A model generated the notes under the pieces. It did no database searches, was not told the DNA's origin, and was given only the letters and a program-made list of their open reading frames with translations. This document shows positions 43,834 to 54,283 of a DNA stretch of 64,000 nt, piece by piece; positions within the stretch are counted from its first letter, which is position 1, and every line of letters begins with the position of its first letter. This DNA comes from Octopus sinensis (Eukaryota). The translations under genes and the position numbers were made by a program. The DNA lies in NCBI RefSeq assembly GCF_006345805.1, contig NC_043004.1, positions 42,284,001 through 42,348,000 on the forward strand, read 5' to 3'.

Positions 43834-44070
43834 TCCCTATTTCTTTACTACTCAGAAGGGGCTAAACACAGAGGGAACTAACAAGGACAGACAAACGGAT
43901 TAAGTCGATTGCATCGACCCCAGTGCGTAACTGGTACTTAATTTATCGATCCAGAAAGGATGAAAGGCAAAGTCGACCTCGGCGGAATTTGAACTCAGAA
44001 CGTAACGGCAGATGAAATACGGCTACGCATTTCGTCCGGCGTGCTAACGTTTCTGCCAGCTCGCCGCCTT
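43834..44070 (-). mobile_element. SINE family 4, monomer
   Basis: Matches 14990-15226; TSD tcatacaa at 43826-43833 and 44071-44078. Confidence 0.9.
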
Positions 44071-44858
44071 TCATACAACAATATAATAAATATTTAGCGT
44101 AAAACAAATATAATTATTAATTCGAATAGGACATCATAAATATGTCCTATCTCATGCAAGATAAAACTACACTGATTTTCCAATGAATAGGAATGCGTTA
44201 ATATCGTTGTTAAAAACCAGATATAATGATAGCTGACTTCTTCATTATTAATAAACTCAGAACTAAGAATCATGCTTGCGCAGCGCAATCCTTTGTAAAC
44301 TCTTCCGGACGTATTGAACTACTGATAGACTTCAGATATAATGTCTCATCAGAATATATTATCACGTATATATAATGATTTAACATACATATCGAAGTAA
44401 ATACTTCTACATCATTAAGATCTTCAGAAGTGATAATTATGTATGTTTCATCAAGTCAAGTTTAACATTTTCCCCTTAAGTCCATCTTTCGGTTCTTTAG
44501 TTTCCGTGTAAATTAACGGCTTCACGCTTCACATATTTTAAACCGCGCGGTCTCTTTTGATTTTATCTCTTCTTTACAGCTATTATCTCCTGTCTTTGGT
44601 TCATCTTCGTAGGAAGTATCTCTCTAAATATTTTAGAAGTCATTATAGAACATCAAAAACAATCACGAAGACACGAAATATCACCAAAAATAAAGTGTTT
44701 TGATGTGTTACCAAAACGATTGTGCTCACCATATATATATATATCTATAAATGAAAGTACAATACAAATATAAGTTTCACTGCCGCTGTCTCTGTCTGTC
44801 TCAGTCTGCCTGCTCGTCTGTCTCTCTGTCTCTGTCTCTGTCTCTGCATATATATATA

Positions 44859-44973
<115 letters not shown>

Positions 44974-45015
44974 TATATATTATATATATATATATATAGA
45001 TATATATATATATAT

Positions 45016-45047
<32 letters not shown>

Positions 45048-45059
45048 AATATAAATTTA

Positions 45060-45632
45060 TAAATAAGGATAAGATAGATATTCAAATATCGATCTTATCA
45101 AGTGGTCAGCATGGGAATAAAAACCTTTCAAAGGTAACAATTATTTAAAATTAAAATTTAGGGTATCTGAGAGATACCACCACGCTGAAAATAGCAGTCA
45201 AGACCTAACTCTAAAGCCACATTAAATGTTCCTATAACACTAGGAGAAAAGACAAAAACACAAAATGAACTAGCAAAATTTACTGGGTAATTCCAGTTCC
45301 TGGATTTCTGGCTTTTCATAGGAGATGCTCTGCCTTCGTCAATGGAATATACTTAGATAGTACATAAATACAAATATATATATATACAACATACGATATA
45401 CTTAGATATAGGAACATCTATAGACACACATATATATGCACGTATGTACACGACCAGTTTAAATTGCCCGCCTTAAAGCTCATCGTGCGATATGGTCAGA
45501 ATAAACACTGCAGTGAATATAATGACGCAATAAATATGTAAATTTAAAAATAAAGCTAAGAACAATATTTAAATATCGATCTTATCAAGGGCCAGCGTGG
45601 GAATAAAAGCCTTTCAAAGGTAATAATTATTG
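45060..45632 (-). mobile_element. PLE-like terminal relic with ~60-bp direct repeats and degenerate hammerhead (45291-45347)
   Basis: aaatatcgatcttatcaag...cctttcaaaggtaa.aattatt at 45084-45144 and 45571-45631; reverse complement ttcca-TTGACGA-aggc...gcca-GAAA-tccaggaac-tggaa. Confidence 0.5.
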
Positions 45633-45639
45633 ATATGGA

Positions 45640-46435
45640 TTTCCTGGTGCAGCCTGGGACGTTACAACTGTCTTGTCCAGGCTAATACTGAGTCCAATAT
45701 CTTTCAGGCAGCAGAGAGCAACTGATTTCTTCCGGCCTCTTCAGTCTCGTGTCTGCTCCGTGCATGACATCACGAGGGAAACAAAAAGTGTTGTGTATCT
45801 TTACTCATGTGGGACATGGACCATTTACAAATGTCATGTAAATGTCCTTGAAGGCTTTCATCAGAGATATCTGAGACAAATTCTGAATGTTGTCTGGACC
45901 TTAAAAACTCCAGACACACAGGTCCTGAAGAAAGCTGTTATCTTGACTACTGAGGCGATGGTGCACAATCACTGGTTACGTTGGACTGGAAACCTTCTTA
46001 GAATGACGGATAGCTGGATCCCTAAACAGCTGCTATATGGGGAACTTGCTACTGGAAAGAGACCTCGGAAGAAACCAAGGCTGCGATTTAAGGACTCAGT
46101 CTAATTAAAGTCTTGTGATATGCAAGTAACTGACTGGGAGAGCAATACCTATCATCGCCACAGATGGAGGAAGTAGGTTAAGGAAAGGATTAAAAGCACA
46201 TATTCTGCATGAAGAATTTAAGCGTGCCGTTCCAAAGCGCAGTTAGTGTAGTGAATGGGAAAAGCTTGGTTTGCAATGTTTTCAGCCGTGTATGCTTGTC
46301 AAGAGCAAAACTCATTAACCACCAACGGAGCCGCAAATGCAAAATATAAGTTAGTCCCAGAGCGCACAATGTTCCTAAACTTGAGCAATGGTCTTTGTCG
46401 GTCACGGGTGGACGGCCATCATCATGATCATCATC
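45640..46435 (+). pseudogene. RTE-clade LINE 3' fragment
   Basis: LYSCGTWTIY...LEGFHQRYLRQILNVVW...LRWTGNLLRMTDSWIPKQLLYGELATGKRPRKKPRLRFKD; ends in a (CAT)n tail. Confidence 0.9.
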
Positions 46436-46907
46436 TATATTTGTGTGTGTGTGTAAATGTATGTATCAATATACTAACATATAATCCTACATTCATAGGC
46501 ATTATTATACAGTTTATACTGCTCCTCAGCTCCTTCATTATAAATCAATTATATTATAATGAATCAGGCTGTGTTATTAAGGCCACGTCGTTTAATTAGA
46601 CTGGTTTCAAATACCTATATCCGAAAATTTTCACCAAAAATTTTAGAAAAATTTTCCCCAAAAATTTTTCAAAACCTTTCCCCTAAAAATTTTTTCGAAC
46701 GGTCTCCCCTAAAATTTTACCAAAAAATTTTTCGAAAATTTTCACCGAAAATTTTACCCGAAAAGTTTCCGAAAATTTTCCCGAAAATTTTTCGAAAATT
46801 TTCCCCAAGCTAAAAATAGATGTTATGGCTAAAAAGAGATTTTTTGTGGGCTGCTGCTGCTTTCTGAGTATATATAGAGTGAATTCTGGTTTACTACTAC
46901 AGTGAAG

Positions 46908-47020
46908 ATGCCTCACCAGCCACGATACACCAGATTCTGCATTACACTTAACAACTATGACGATATCGACGTTTATAGACTTCAGCATATGGAGCAATAT
47001 CCGTTATATGGGTTTTCGAA
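46908..47020 (+). pseudogene. CRESS-DNA/circovirus-like Rep N-terminal fragment, cassette 1
   Basis: MPHQPRYTRFCITLNNYDDIDVYRLQHMEQ then a 1-nt frameshift; tatatataga about 35 nt upstream of the ATG. Confidence 0.6.
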
Positions 47021-47782
47021 AATTATCACAAAAAATTTTTCAAAAATTTTCACCGAAAATTTTCCCCAAAAATTTTTCGAAAATTTTTTCCGAGCTGAAC
47101 ATAGATGTTATGGCTAAAAATAGATTTTTAGGTGGCTGCTGCTGCTTTCGCCGAAAATTTTCACCAAAAATTTTTCGAAAATTCTCACCGAAAATTTTAC
47201 CCAAAAATTTTAGAAAATTTTCACCTAAAATTTTACCCAAAAGTTTTTTCGAAAATTTTACCCAAAAATTTTTCGAAAATTTTCATCGAAAATTTTACCC
47301 AAAAATTTTTCGAAAATTTTCTCCGAATATATTACCCAAAAATTTTTTTAAAATTTTTACCTAAAATTTTACCCAAAAGTTTTTCTAAAATTTTCACCTA
47401 AAATTTTACCCAAAAATTTTTCGAAAATTTTCACCTAAAATTTTACCCAAAAATTTTTTCGAAAATTTTCATCGAAAATTTTCTCCGAATATATTACCCC
47501 AAAATTTTTTTTAAATTTTCACCTAAAATTTTACCCAAAAATTTTTCGAAAATTTTCACCTAAAATTTTACCTAAAAATTTTTCGAAAATTTTACCTAAA
47601 AATTTTTCGATAATTTTACCCAAAAATTTTCACCAACAATTTTTGGAAAATTTTCACCGAAAATTTTACCCAAAAATTTTTCGGAAATTTTCACCGAAAA
47701 TTTTCACCAAAAATTTACCCAAAAATTTTTCGAACATTTTCACCGGAAACTTTACCCAACAATTTTTGGAAAATTTTATCCA

Positions 47783-47900
47783 AAATCACAAAGTATGGAA
47801 GGCCAGCGGTGCCCAAATCCCAAAGTATGGAAAGCCAGTGGTGCCAAAATCACAAAGTATGGTACGCCAGCGGTGCCAATATCACAAAGTATGGAAAGCC
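47783..47900. repeat. 32-bp minisatellite, about 3.7 units (aaatcacaaagtatggaaagccagcggtgcca)
   Basis: Units start at 47783, 47815, 47847 and 47879. Confidence 0.92.
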
Positions 47901-48393
47901 ATACTTTTCGAAACTTTTCACGTAAAATTTTACCCAAAAGTTTTCACCAACAATTTTTGGAAATTTTTGTCGAAAATTTTACCCAAACATTTTTCGGAAA
48001 TTTTCACCGAGAATTTTAACCAAAAATTTTACCCAAAAATTTTTCGAATATTTTGACCGAAAATTTTACCCAAAGATTACGCGAAAATTTTAACCAAAAA
48101 TTTTGACCAACAATTTTCGAAAATATTTCGAAAATTTCACCGAAAATCTTCCCCAAAAGTTTTTGAAAAATTTTCACCGAAAATTTTAACCAAAAATTTT
48201 TCGAAAATTTTCACTGAAAATTTTACCCAAAAATTTTTCCTAAATTTTTCCCGAAAATTTTATCCAAAAATTTTTAGAAAATTTTCCGCGAGCTAAAAAT
48301 AGATGTTATGGCTAAAAATAGACTTATAGTTGGCTGCTGCTGCTGTTTTCTGTGTATACATAGAGTTAATTCTGGATAAATACTACAGTCAAG

Positions 48394-48504
48394 ATGCCTC
48401 ACCATCCACTATACACCAGATTATGCTTTACACTTAACAACTATGACGATATCGACGTCTATAGACTTCAGCATATGGAGCATATTCGTTATATGGGTTT
48501 TCGA
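48394..48504 (+). pseudogene. CRESS-like Rep N-terminal fragment, cassette 3
   Basis: MPHHPLYTRLCFTLNNYDDIDVYRLQHMEHIRYMGFR. Confidence 0.62.
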
Positions 48505-48702
48505 ATATTTCACCAAAAATTTTTCGAAAATTTTACCCAAAAATTTTTCAAAAATTTTCCCTGAAAATTTTTCCCAAAAATGTTTCGAAAATTTTCCCCT
48601 ACCTAAAAATAGAAGTTATGGCTAAAAAAAGATTTTTAGTTGACTGTGCTGCTGCTTTCTGTGTATATATAGAGTGAATTCTGGTTTACTACTACAGTGA
48701 AG

Positions 48703-48813
48703 ATGGCTCACCATCCACGATACACCAGATTCTGCTTTACACTTAACAGCTATGACGATATCGACGTTTATGGACTGCAGCATATGGAGCATATTCGTTA
48801 TATGGGTTTTCGA
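48703..48813 (+). pseudogene. CRESS-like Rep N-terminal fragment, cassette 4
   Basis: MAHHPRYTRFCFTLNSYDDIDVYGLQHMEHIRYMGFR. Confidence 0.62.
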
Positions 48814-49009
48814 AAATTTTCAGCGAAAATTTTACGCAAAAATTTCGCGAAAATTTTCCCCAAAAATTTTTCGAAAATTTTCCCCGAGCTAAAAATAGAT
48901 GTTTAGGGATAAAAATAGGTTTTTAGATGGCTGCTGCTTTCTGTGTATATATAGAGTGAATTCTTGTTTACTACTACAGTCAAGATGCCTCAATATCCAC
49001 GATACACCA

Positions 49010-49325
49010 CGATGGCTCAGTGGTTAGATCGTGAAGTTATGAGCTCGAATCCCGGACCGGGCTGTGTTTTGTGCTCTTGAGCAATACACTTTATTTCACG
49101 TTGCTCCAGTTAACTCAGCTGTAGAAATGAGTTGCGACGTCACGGGTGTCAAGCTGTATAGGATGCTGCCCTTCGCTTGGATAACACTGTTTGGTGTGGA
49201 GAGGGGATGCCGGTATGCACGGGCGACTGCTGGTCTTCCATAAACCACCTTGCCCAGACTTGTGACGAGGAGGGTAACTTCCTAGGTGCAATCCCATGGT
49301 CAGTGTCGTGACCGAAGGCGGTCCC
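49010..49325 (+). mobile_element. SINE family 3
   Basis: A box tggctcagtgg, B-box-like gagctcgaatccc, body cttgagcaatacactttatttcacgttgctccagttaactcagctgtagaaatgag; homologous to 26950-27223(-). Confidence 0.85.
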
Positions 49326-49998
49326 GATCTACTCCGTAATGTGATAAGTTTTAACATGTTTGTCATTGTAAAATATTTAGCGATCAAAGCAATACGCTTT
49401 TAGAACCATTACTAGATATTGCAAATGTTGTCTTCCTTTGACATAAAGCAGTGTATTCAATCTGCAGGGTGTACTACTGCGGAATGTGCATGCATTTCTT
49501 ATGCCATTATGGATGCAGTAGAATCGAAAGAACTACTACGATGTAACATTGTGATAAAATTCATAGAGTTGTCATTAAATTGAATCTTTCTTGGACATAC
49601 TAATTTTGTAGTGCCATTACCCAATTCCATGCTCTATTCAATTCTTAGAACCAATATAAAATAAATTCCTTCATTCAGACTCCTTCATAGTTATGTATTA
49701 GGTAGACCTTAGAGAAACAATGAAATTTCACTGGAATGTGCCAATTTACAAGTAGTTCAACAGCTTAATCATGATAGGCATATCTCTGTTATATTAAATC
49801 ATTTGTTCATGTGGAGTAGGTCAGCGTACGACAAATTTACTGGAAATACTAGAGAATTCTTAAGTAAAGACGAACCAAAGATCCTGAAGCCAAAAGACTG
49901 AAGCACGTTTCTTCGAAATAATGCGATTATAAATATAACAGAAGTATTTCTAGATTTCTCTAATTATCTATGTGTCTGTCTAGGTCTGTGTCTAATTC

Positions 49999-50220
<222 letters not shown>

Positions 50221-51179
50221 AATATGTCACAAATATATAAACGATGAATGAGAAAGACAAGCGAAACAAAAAGAAAATAAGAAAGATGAAATATACGTAT
50301 CATGCACACAGATACACACAAACACATACACAAACACACACACGTAGACATATACACGCATAGACACACATAAACGCACACATACACACACATACACATA
50401 CACACACACTCACACAAACATATATATGTGTGTGTATATGTATATGTATATGAGCATACATATACACAAATACGAATATACATTCATACAAATGTATAAG
50501 ATCACATTTATAGAATTTGCAATAACTTGTACTTGCAACAATATATCATACTATTTTTCTTATACTACTGTGTAACATATTTATCTATATCCAAGATTCT
50601 GTGGCCCAAAGGAATACATATTTCACACAGATATCAAGATAATGGACACATCATATTTTTAAATTCTGTCACATTTTTCTCGATGCTAGAATAAACTGAC
50701 AGGTGACATTGATGCTAAATATATAACTCGTTTGCCCGAGGTAGAAAATAGAGATGGCAGAGCAATATATTGTATATAGAAGATTTATTTATTTAAAGAA
50801 AACAATTATGGAATTCATTAGCTAAAATATAAATGCTTGAAACCGAAAGAGATATTTGGTTTTAATTTAGGTCAGTATCTTGAAAGAATGTGATAATGTT
50901 GTAAACACCGAGACAACGGCGGTTAATTTGTTATGCAATATTTTAGAAGGATAATAATTTTCACGGTCAAAGAACAAGAGTGCCAGTCAAAAGCTGGAAA
51001 CGATTGCGGTAGACTACATCCAAACTAGAAAATTAATTGAGATCGGGCGATTATGCAGAAGCACTAGATACCATGTTTTTTGTTTGTTTGTTTCGGAAAA
51101 AGAAACAGAGAGTAGTGAATGGCAGAATAGTAAAGTATCTACTGAAGCGATTTGTATTATTTTAGATTCCTCAATAGCT

Positions 51180-51395
51180 ACGAGGTTGCAGAATCGTTAA
51201 TACATTGAAATAATGCATACCGGGATTTCCTTCACTTCTTTACATCCAAAGTTCAAATCCCACCGATGTCGACTTAGCATTCCATCCTTTCGGGTTTGAT
51301 AGATAAATTAAGTACCAACTGAGCGCTGGTGTCTATGTAATCATCTGATCCACTTCCCATCAAAAATTTGCTAGGTTTGTGCTAAAAGTAAAAAA
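51180..51395 (+). mobile_element. SINE family 4, old diverged copy
   Basis: gcagaatcgttaa...agttcaaatcccaccgatgtcgacttagcattccatcctttcggg...gataaattaagtacca. Confidence 0.7.
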
Positions 51396-54283
51396 GGACT
51401 ACTTTTTCTTTGTGTATTTTTGTTATATCGTTTGTTTAAATAATCGCATCCACATTATTGTACCTTAACTGTCGTATTTATCAACATCCTGTGAATATAT
51501 ATGTTAAATGTCGGCTGACGTATCTGAATTTTGAAAAATATCAGCATAAGTATTAGAAGGTTGTGAGGAATTAATATCTCTGCAAATGTGATGTAAGAAC
51601 AACACCCGTGTATTCGTCAGGGATATGACACGATACGGTGATGCTCTAATTAGTTTTTATGAACTTATATCCATCCGATAGATTTGTAATGTTCCACTTC
51701 CAAATGTACTTATTCCTAGATAAACTGCTCAGTATCTTTCTTTTTCTTTTTAGATCTCTAACACGGATATAACTCCATTTTCTTTTTCGGAATTAGTTGA
51801 CTGCAAAACCTATCAAAATTATGTTCTTCAACCCCAATTAGCTAACTGCATAACCTCTCAACATGATGTTCTGCAACCCTACGGTCATCACCGCTTATTT
51901 TGTGCGTTCTTTTTTAGAAATGCAACACGTTGGAAACCCCTTAACCATTCCAGTTTACCAAAGTAATATATCATGCCGCGTAATTTGAAACTGAACAGCA
52001 ATCTACTATGGCCTGTAATCGTTCTAACGACTACATCTTCTTCATTGATCAATCTACGAAATATAAATCATATTTCATCTGTTTGAATGTCTTCCTTTCA
52101 CTGTAATTGAGAAGTAATTTTGATAATTAAGACAATTTGGGACTGTTCAACCAGTCATTCTATTCGAGGTCTGATGCTTTCCAATGCTTATACCGCTGAA
52201 TACCCTCATATCTCTCAGTCGACTGGAAGCTTGTAAGGGCCTGTACAACAAAAGCGACGCTGCAACTGAAGATTACTTTTAAAAATATTTAATTAATGTA
52301 GTTTTTGACCTTAGAAATAGTAACGATGAGTACCCAGTAAATCAGTAACACGACTGGAAAAAATTAATATTTATTCACCCAAATAAAACTCCTTGTATAG
52401 ATATGCAGCCACATGTAATTTAATCGACACGGATTATGTATAATGTCAAACGGACACGACTATTTATATCAGTAATATTTAGACACTGAATTCTTTCCTT
52501 CCAAGTTTTGTTTCTGCTGGTGTGCATAAATTCGAAGTAGCAATCTTCAGAGAATTCAGTTCGAGATGTTAAAACAACATACAATATGAAGGCATGTTAT
52601 GTGATGCGTGAAGTTTCAGATTTTATATCTGTTCACCCATCACCAAGAAAAGAGTGAGAAAGTAAGAATTTGACGATGTAGCCCAAATAGATATATTATA
52701 TGCATATTTCTGTTCTATATTAATGGAACGCGTGTAAATGTTTTACATTTCTCTGTTGTAAAACAAATTGTACCGTTTTTGTATTTCTTAACGGGTTGGC
52801 TCAGACTAAAATGAGACCAGTCGAGTTAACCGTATAATGTAAGTGCATGTTACACATTCAATGATTTTAAAGAACAAAAACAAACAATTAATCCCATTGT
52901 TTGAACACACATACACACATAGGAAAATATTTGAGTGGTTTAGCATACAGCTTCCAGACCACGAGCCCATGGTTTCAATTCCACGGCGTAACACATTTGC
53001 AAAGTATTTACCATAGACTAGGTTCCCTTCAAGACGTTTGAAAGAAATCTTTATTACTAGAAATGGTTTAGAATGATTTGGGATGGGTTACATTTAGTAA
53101 TTCAAACCATCACCCTTATCACACGGTGCCATGCTGATTGTACGTAGAATTACGTTAAGAGTATTCGCGTCTGTAGATATTTAACCACTAAGCAATCTTA
53201 TTCGTAGTGTACGACATGCAATTGTTTTTACACTGGCCTTTCATACGTCCAAATGGACGGAAGTGTTACCAATACATACAGACATATAAGCATACGTGTG
53301 CGCACATGCATGCACGTCTGTATATAATTGGCCAAAATTTATTTAACTACATAACAGTTGTGGTACAGATTGTAATTGAAAATGAATAGCTCTATTTATC
53401 TTAGTAAATATCGATGTTTTCTGTACAAAGACTATATTTATATATTTCACCAAAAGTGTAAAATTGTTATTTTTGTAATGACCTTGCTCGAACTACTTTT
53501 AAAGTGTCTATAACATATTATATTCTTAAGACAATAAGCAAAGACAAATCTTTCGTTTTGAATAAGTGACTTTCATTTTTCTATTAATTATATACTAACA
53601 CGTAAATAACAAAAATCAGCTATTTATTTGAGAAACTTAAGAGTTCCTCCACATGGTTGTACAAGTGTACTATAGATCTTTAGGAATTCTACCTCACTTA
53701 TTCATATGAAAGAAAATCAATCACATGTGAAGCGTTATGAACACGTATGATATCTCCTAATTGATAGCGACATCCCATTGATAATTTAATATAATTCCTT
53801 TTGAGTTGAGAAGTCTTTCAATCAAGACATCATAGATTATCATAACAGATAATCATAACAATGAAAAACCTATATTTTATTGTTTGATGAATTATTATGA
53901 TTATGCTTATCGGCAAAGTAATATCGGAGATGATAGTGTACTTCTTTGTCTAAATATATACGCTTATCATTTTCCTACTTGAATGTTGAAAGCGGGGAAA
54001 GGTCTTCACATGAACATGTTTGCGCCCTTGTAGTGATTCTCATATTGAACATATAATGTTTGTTCCACTTGGCACACATACGCGCTTCCATCTTATTCAT
54101 CCCTATATCTCTAAGGTGTATGTTTTTCTATCGGATTCCACGTACACATACATACGGAACTAATGAACACACATTCTTTTGGCTGTCTGTTGGCTTCTCT
54201 TTTCCCACATGTGTGTGTGTGTAAGTGTGTGTGTGTACCTGTGAAAGTATGTGTGTGTATATATATATATGTATGTATGTATG

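Follow-up and report, generated by a model that had tools for sequence, protein, structure and literature searches.

The array described here carries a captured piece of a virus. Its repeated cassette is the TATA region, the leader and the first ~36 codons of the Rep gene of a CRESS virus, it is chromosomal and not a contaminant, and it has probably reached its present distribution through a single capture of this Rep 5′ end by a dispersed minisatellite, followed by passive neutral spread. In the window, that is, the whole 64,000-nucleotide stretch of Octopus sinensis DNA that was analysed, the array occupies 2,389 bp (46620–49008) and is composed of three modules (Table 1): a minisatellite with a 12/13-bp unit, a palindromic AAAATTTT core and a 37-bp higher-order period; a 32-bp repeat; and the 210-bp cassette. 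The core AAAATTTT was counted 82 times within the array versus 5 times in the remaining window. The 32-bp repeat (3.8 copies at 47780–47901) is a third module that was absent from the first-pass annotation of this DNA, whose count of three full and two partial cassettes is confirmed by the coordinates. The full cassettes (starting at ~46809, ~48292 and 48602) share 91–93% pairwise identity, follow the reported order of a doubled GCTAAAAATAGA head, (GCT)n, a TATA-like box and a motif-I frame, and all stop at a common GGGTTTTCGAA end (47010, 48495 and 48804). The 36-codon frame that had been ascribed to every full cassette is, however, intact in cassettes 2 and 3 only, cassette 1 being frameshifted near codon 30. 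One partial cassette consists of the head only; the other is halted at codon 8 by a repeat that we take to be SINE-like from the appearance of its tRNA-like A and B boxes. The left neighbour of the array is presumably a LINE-like frame, for which Pfam returned no match, and an Rfam search of window positions 44000–52000 gave hairpin matches below threshold only. Elsewhere in the window (18326–18877, minus strand) lies a transposase fragment of the DDE_Tnp_1_7 family (E 2e-33), which we assume to be piggyBac-like.

Table 1. Modules of the array and its right-hand boundary, in window coordinates
Feature	Position	Strand
AAAATTTT minisatellite, left end of array	46620..46808	
Cassette 1 (frameshifted): Rep 5′ end with ATG 46908, preceded by the doubled head, (GCT)n and a TATA-like box at 46869	46809..47020	+
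Head-only partial cassette	47094..47150	+
AAAATTTT minisatellite	47151..47779	
Second host module: 3.8 tandem copies of the 32-bp repeat (19-mer with 715 exact matches in the genome)	47780..47901	+
AAAATTTT minisatellite	47911..48289	
Cassette 2: 36-codon frame of the Rep 5′ end, from ATG 48394 into minisatellite; TATA-like box at 48355	48290..48505	+
AAAATTTT minisatellite spacer	48506..48601	
Cassette 3: TATA box 48664 (region homologous to that of fossil L031), ATG 48703, motif I	48602..48814	+
AAAATTTT minisatellite spacer	48815..48887	
Partial cassette, right end of array: head and TATA-like box (48946), then a frame from ATG 48985 that breaks off at codon 8	48888..49008	+
Presumed SINE-like host repeat bounding the array, outside the element; end approximate	49009..49330	+

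The proposal that the frame is a CRESS-virus Rep N-terminus residing in an octopus genome was upheld by a protein match, a match of the upstream DNA and an independent profile. A profile of 76 non-octopus Reps gave the three window peptides 18–21 bits, against a maximum of 5.5 for 1,000 shuffles of each, and when the same profile was run on the six-frame translation of the window the three cassette frames ranked first (E 3e-5 to 4e-4; next 0.13). The check suggested in the first-pass annotation, a Pfam search of the peptide, was negative: none of the three cassette peptides (30–37 aa) hit a family, and a PDB search with the cassette peptide alone gave no matches, negatives that we ascribe to the fragment being too short for such searches. 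Cassette 3 is identical to the Rep of the long fossil L031 at 19 of 34 residues (56%; pairwise E 3e-14). Its TATA region agrees with that of L031 in 20 of 24 columns, a score equalled by 6 of 2,000 shuffles; the corresponding comparisons with the fossils L032 (258 of 2,000 shuffles as good) and L035 (45 of 2,000) were not significant and barely significant, respectively. The cassette is flanked by host repeats and occurs at no fewer than 39 loci, and contigs span it end to end in all four sequencing runs inspected, which bear three other organism labels.

The long fossils themselves reveal the kind of virus involved. A search of the 2.72-Gb genome with PF02407 found three matches, two of them above the cut-off. 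L031 (also L104; G000:C3:47.24 Mb) encodes a 272-aa Rep (PF02407 E 2.6e-23; PDB match Replicase 2hw0, E 2e-14) in which motifs I–III and Walker A are visible and which ends, rearranged, within the helicase domain; the names of these motifs, and the nick position used below, follow the convention for the family. Beside it lies an Arg-rich ORF that Atlas groups, at 0.95, with capsids of circovirus type, although weakly, since the recognition value falls short of its threshold; together with the Arg-rich N-terminus this weakly suggests a capsid-like protein. Upstream of this fossil we observed a near-perfect palindrome, ~80 bp in length, as well as a small stem-loop whose loop is non-canonical. 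L035 (G000:C16:4.80 Mb) is a unit-length ambisense Rep/Cap fossil with broken Rep and capsid ORFs, a terminal duplication whose copies lie ~2.14 kb apart, and an origin in which a 9-bp stem (z −3.25) bears a loop with TAGTATTAC. The proteins closest to the fossil Reps are annotated in other octopuses: the L035 Rep is 95% identical over 300 aa to a predicted protein of Octopus vulgaris, likely the same insertion, and an O. bimaculoides protein is 87% identical to the L031 Rep. L035 is arguably the better anchor for host assignment. When the genome was searched with the L031 Rep, 142 of 165 candidates were retained as matches, ~129 of cassette type and 13 to other fossils, L035 among them. Further fragments of this lineage, from the Rep helicase domain (L106–L113, on C19, C3, C29, C1, C17 and C16), were matched by tblastn in 7 of 8 stretches and lie without the satellite. 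By their sequences, L031 and L035 point to a donor lineage with motifs II and III, an SF3-type helicase, a capsid and a nonanucleotide stem-loop, none of which the cassette has.

Among named free viruses, the best match to the long fossil Rep is Dragonfly larvae associated circular virus-10 (DfLaCV-10; Anicreviridae, Mulpavirales), 41% identical over 96%. In a tree made quickly from 81 Reps, built without a circovirus/cyclovirus reference set and with one named Anicreviridae member, the six octopus-group rows do not join DfLaCV-10 with support but form their own clade (SH-aLRT 100) with no supported family link; among solved PDB structures the circovirus-type Rep scores best. Scans of IMG/VR and metagenomes for free relatives gave 1, 3 and 1 loci at 35–44% identity, none close enough for a comparison of intergenic DNA. 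The capsid-like ORF of L031 has a 76% identical counterpart (P0096) in a bacterial assembly, on a contig of 2,467 bp; this contig probably represents contamination, by a circular virus or by octopus DNA, and might lead to a living relative. That the genome also contains longer virus fossils suggests that octopuses have been hosts of an unclassified CRESS-virus lineage.

Divergence at the three codon positions separates the history of the fragment in the virus from its history in the host. The copies differ from L031 and L032 by 0.33–0.35, 0.12–0.19 and 0.52–0.53 at first, second and third positions (pN/pS 0.27–0.31), and from each other by 0.116, 0.105 and 0.106 (pN/pS 0.84, a point estimate slightly below 1). 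Because of the third-position excess against the fossils and the even divergence among the copies, we conclude that the fragment had a coding history in the virus and decayed neutrally after capture. The direct donor is absent from the assembly; the fossils L031 and L032 are 65–67% identical to the cassette in DNA, and the donor would have been a strain separate from both. Among 121 near-full copies, 26 contain stops, 19 frameshifts and 13 lack the ATG, and an open frame with its ATG is kept in 63. Devoid of motifs II and III, the 36-codon frame cannot encode a nicking enzyme, and the cassette is most likely functionless.

Cassette loci number at least 39 and are distributed over 11 contigs of chromosome scale and 5 small ones, this count comprising 37 fetched stretches and two further loci without fetched sequence. 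BLAST recovered 227 pieces, 121 of them near-full, in the 33 regions fetched first, and 250 pieces across all 37 fetched stretches. A 16-mer found in 79 of the 121 copies has 125 exact genomic matches, which suggests ~190 genome-wide copies of the 3′ part of the cassette; the total is estimated at ~190–250 pieces (about 200). The cassette unit is a family dispersed over the genome and not a satellite confined to the window. Identity among copies averages 0.90 within loci and 0.88 between loci, and the nearest relative of 51 of 113 copies lies at another locus. In 14 fetched stretches (e.g. L143–L145) a short cassette made of the last ~55 bp only recurs, amplified as a sub-unit. Three cassette loci (L067, L068 and L074) have a common host flank, two of them also a common adjacent 22-bp repeat, likely reflecting segmental duplication near chromosome ends.

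Nearly all of these pieces break at one point. At the 3′ junction, 198 of the 201 pieces that reach it pass straight into minisatellite, and the motif beyond the junction occurs in the genome only in the two long fossils L031 and L032, which speaks for a single capture. No cassette copy extending into motif II was found in the genome search; thus, the search for longer copies that had been proposed yielded related fossils with motifs II and III, yet no cassette running past its junction. Capsid and helicase queries had no matches in the arrays, and all 169 tblastn matches there fall at the Rep start, what lies beyond residue 45 being low-identity run-ons into minisatellite. With one junction and no motif II copy, truncation therefore predates amplification, as the first-pass annotation had deduced from the common GGGTTTTCGAA end.

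As to mechanism, the Rep 5′ fragment was likely captured once, during repair of a DNA break in the octopus germline; the junction, inspected by eye, has only ~2 nt in common, which would fit end-joining. Local expansion may have followed by slippage or unequal exchange. Between chromosomes, arrays could have moved as satellite circles after excision or through break repair with template switching, with the palindromic core helping, as the shape of the junctions suggests. The cassette would then likely have spread as a passenger of the satellite, decaying neutrally. We favour a passenger because satellite arrays exist without the cassette and because their ends are ragged. Both carriers are more widely spread than the cassette, with 456 genome matches for a minisatellite 22-mer and 715 for the 32-bp repeat. 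Of 26 sampled loci with a 39-nt minisatellite word, 10 were cassette loci and the other 16 stretches had no cassette, as was the case for 9 of 9 loci of the 32-bp repeat chosen outside known cassette loci; these are 8-kb stretches, in which a cassette further out may be missed (the L128 array overruns its stretch). Among the minisatellite matches listed, C1 has 14 loci, 5 of them with cassettes, and C2 has 14 loci without a cassette match. On both chromosomes the minisatellite loci, among the matches listed, are clustered toward the two ends and nearly absent from the middle.

Arrays with and without cassettes end at varied phases, in unique DNA or in other repeats, and no fixed or conserved termini were found among those compared. 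A shared flanking word of at least 7 nt was present in 7 of 25 arrays versus 12.5% of mismatched pairs, a slight and unconvincing excess, with no constant length and with several words resembling the minisatellite; one array outside this target-duplication test shows by eye a candidate duplication of 8 nt. None of 79 arrays had a clean empty site, and 12 of the 79 had an inverted copy of the flank near an end, a raw count that includes nearby repeats (clearest case, 195 bp at 98%). Inversions within stretches are common as well, occurring in 10 of 37. Both kinds of inversion would suit a spread by copying at breaks or by reinsertion of circles. A derivation of the minisatellite, the 32-bp repeat or the head from fossil virus DNA was not detected, the best of 12 comparisons being matched by 7 of 200 nulls, which is not significant after 12 tests. 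The doubled head had no significant match to virus or satellite and could come from either. Five loci (L115, L118, L121, L064 and L103) carry pure 32-bp arrays with a common low-copy flank that includes an exon-like stretch; this region may be the birthplace of the 32-bp repeat.

A different account would make the cassette a non-autonomous replicon, which kept a minimal origin (the iteron-like doubled head, the TATA box and a nonanucleotide) and whose tandem copies are nicked in trans by a viral Rep, so that circles seed new loci and the satellite is carried along. We consider this unlikely. It draws on a site 7 nt before the ATG, at which 16 of the 121 near-full copies have exactly TAATATTAC; genome-wide, TAATATTAC or TAGTATTAC is matched 22 times at 8 loci, versus 33 matches of the TACTACTAC form. 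Nineteen copies with the canonical nonanucleotide fall within one 21-copy clade (support 0.78, in a tree that excluded those columns), the TAATATTAC clade has a between-locus identity of 0.92 versus 0.86, and the TAATATTAC copies thus appear to be one younger clade. The Rep fossils also testify that the lineage entered the germline. Nevertheless, the commonest form at the site is TACTACTAC (51 of 121) and L031 has ACTACTAC there, in common with the non-canonical cassette form, for which reason the canonical nonanucleotide looks derived and the non-canonical form older. No stable origin stem-loop was found in the cassette, where the nonanucleotide is confined to the subfamily; over 18 copies the TAATATTAC site folds at a mean of ~−0.5 kcal/mol, whereas the origins of three free viruses reach −9.7 to −12.9, and L035 by contrast retains its 9-bp stem. 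Early 3′ ends compatible with the nick position number 2 of 49, both internal to arrays, where a rough count expects ~0.8, and none of 90 late 5′ starts lies at the nick. Moreover, another young subfamily, which lacks the canonical nonanucleotide, also spans 4 loci, and cassette-free arrays are at least equally widespread. The first-pass suggestion of a Rep-driven rolling-circle transposon or defective replicon was accordingly not supported, the donor lineage having a capsid and an SF3-type helicase, the cassette no origin hairpin and the arrays no fixed termini, and the satellite also occurring without the cassette. A narrower conjecture is that the minisatellite, with its captured promoter–Rep stub, gained the canonical nonanucleotide later in one lineage and thereby became a substrate for the CRESS Rep of infecting viruses. 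We regard it as improbable; if true, it would be a virus-mobilised satellite DNA, that is, a non-autonomous rolling-circle element without its own transposase in the genome.

It is rather improbable that the host keeps the cassette as a source of antiviral small RNAs, with inverted copies and the TATA box giving double-stranded transcripts directed against CRESS viruses. Ten of the 37 stretches indeed contain both orientations, the copies have kept the TATA region, and endogenous geminivirus repeats of yam are described as yielding siRNAs (PMC5014472). A sequencing run presumed to be of RNA gave 12 short contigs, a result that speaks neither for nor against expression. However, the copies diverge neutrally and evenly, are often internally deleted, and are only 65–67% identical to two fossil strains. 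Slighter still is the chance that the fragment travels inside a conventional transposon of the Merlin, Helitron or Replitron type, of which the minisatellite and the 32-bp repeat would be internal repeats. Here one may cite L032 (G000:C14:52.36 Mb), whose Rep 5′ piece with its TATA region splits a transposase frame of IS1595/Merlin-like type into two halves (each short of the Pfam cut-off, E 0.0011 and 0.014), the carnivore circovirus fossils amplified with LINE-1 (PMC6372831) and the common flank of some 32-bp arrays. Yet those flanks are confined to a few loci, common termini are lacking in cassette and cassette-free arrays alike, and the internal gaps inspected are host repeats or degenerate satellite. 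A non-autonomous Helitron or Replitron is disfavoured, since the arrays compared show no conserved termini and the long relatives recovered resemble viruses in their capsid ORFs and SF3 motifs. Finally, a chance likeness, with FTLNNY arisen in an unrelated repeat, would suit the empty Pfam and PDB searches of the peptide alone, but it can be dismissed in view of the protein match, the upstream DNA match, the independent profile and, above all, the third-position bias against the fossil Reps, which refutes it.

Our preferred reading, one capture by a dispersed minisatellite and passive spread thereafter, has consequences beyond this array. Germline fossils, including a unit-length genome with its origin, point to a host for an unclassified CRESS lineage, with related Reps in O. 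vulgaris and O. bimaculoides. We found no report of cephalopod CRESS fossils in the literature, while the supplementary tables of broad endogenous-virus surveys may list octopus matches. In addition, the 210-bp stub provides a unique-sequence barcode in otherwise unalignable arrays, by which the movement of a minisatellite between chromosomes can be traced.

Several known systems resemble this one in part. Replitrons also tie a CRESS-like HUH Rep to repeated genomic copies, but they are described as helicase-free, with short terminal direct repeats and a whole Rep domain encoded (PMC10288648), whereas the octopus donor had a helicase and a capsid and the repeat keeps motif I only. The TCAST satellite of Tribolium is likewise scattered along chromosome arms in short arrays, and excision of circles followed by reintegration has been proposed as its dispersal route (PMC3411249); unlike TCAST, the octopus array has a module of viral coding origin that is usable as a lineage marker. 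CVe-Carnivora-4 is, as reported, a rep fragment from one germline event that was amplified as the passenger of a host repeat (PMC6372831); the carrier differs, being LINE-1 with 10–20 copies there and a minisatellite with an estimated ~190–250 pieces in the octopus. In Nicotiana, GRD2, GRD3, GRD5 and GRD53 are described as truncated, degenerate rep with upstream intergenic DNA, arranged in multiple direct repeats and evolving neutrally (PMC5014472), all of which applies to the octopus cassette. According to the same source, GRD elements are clustered on one or two chromosomes and carry a v-ori-like sequence, whereas the octopus unit is only 210 bp long, lacks a hairpin, alternates with two tandem repeats of the host and occurs on 11 chromosome-scale contigs. 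The octopus family would be an animal parallel of the tobacco GRD in which a dispersed minisatellite acts as the carrier, a role new for such a repeat.
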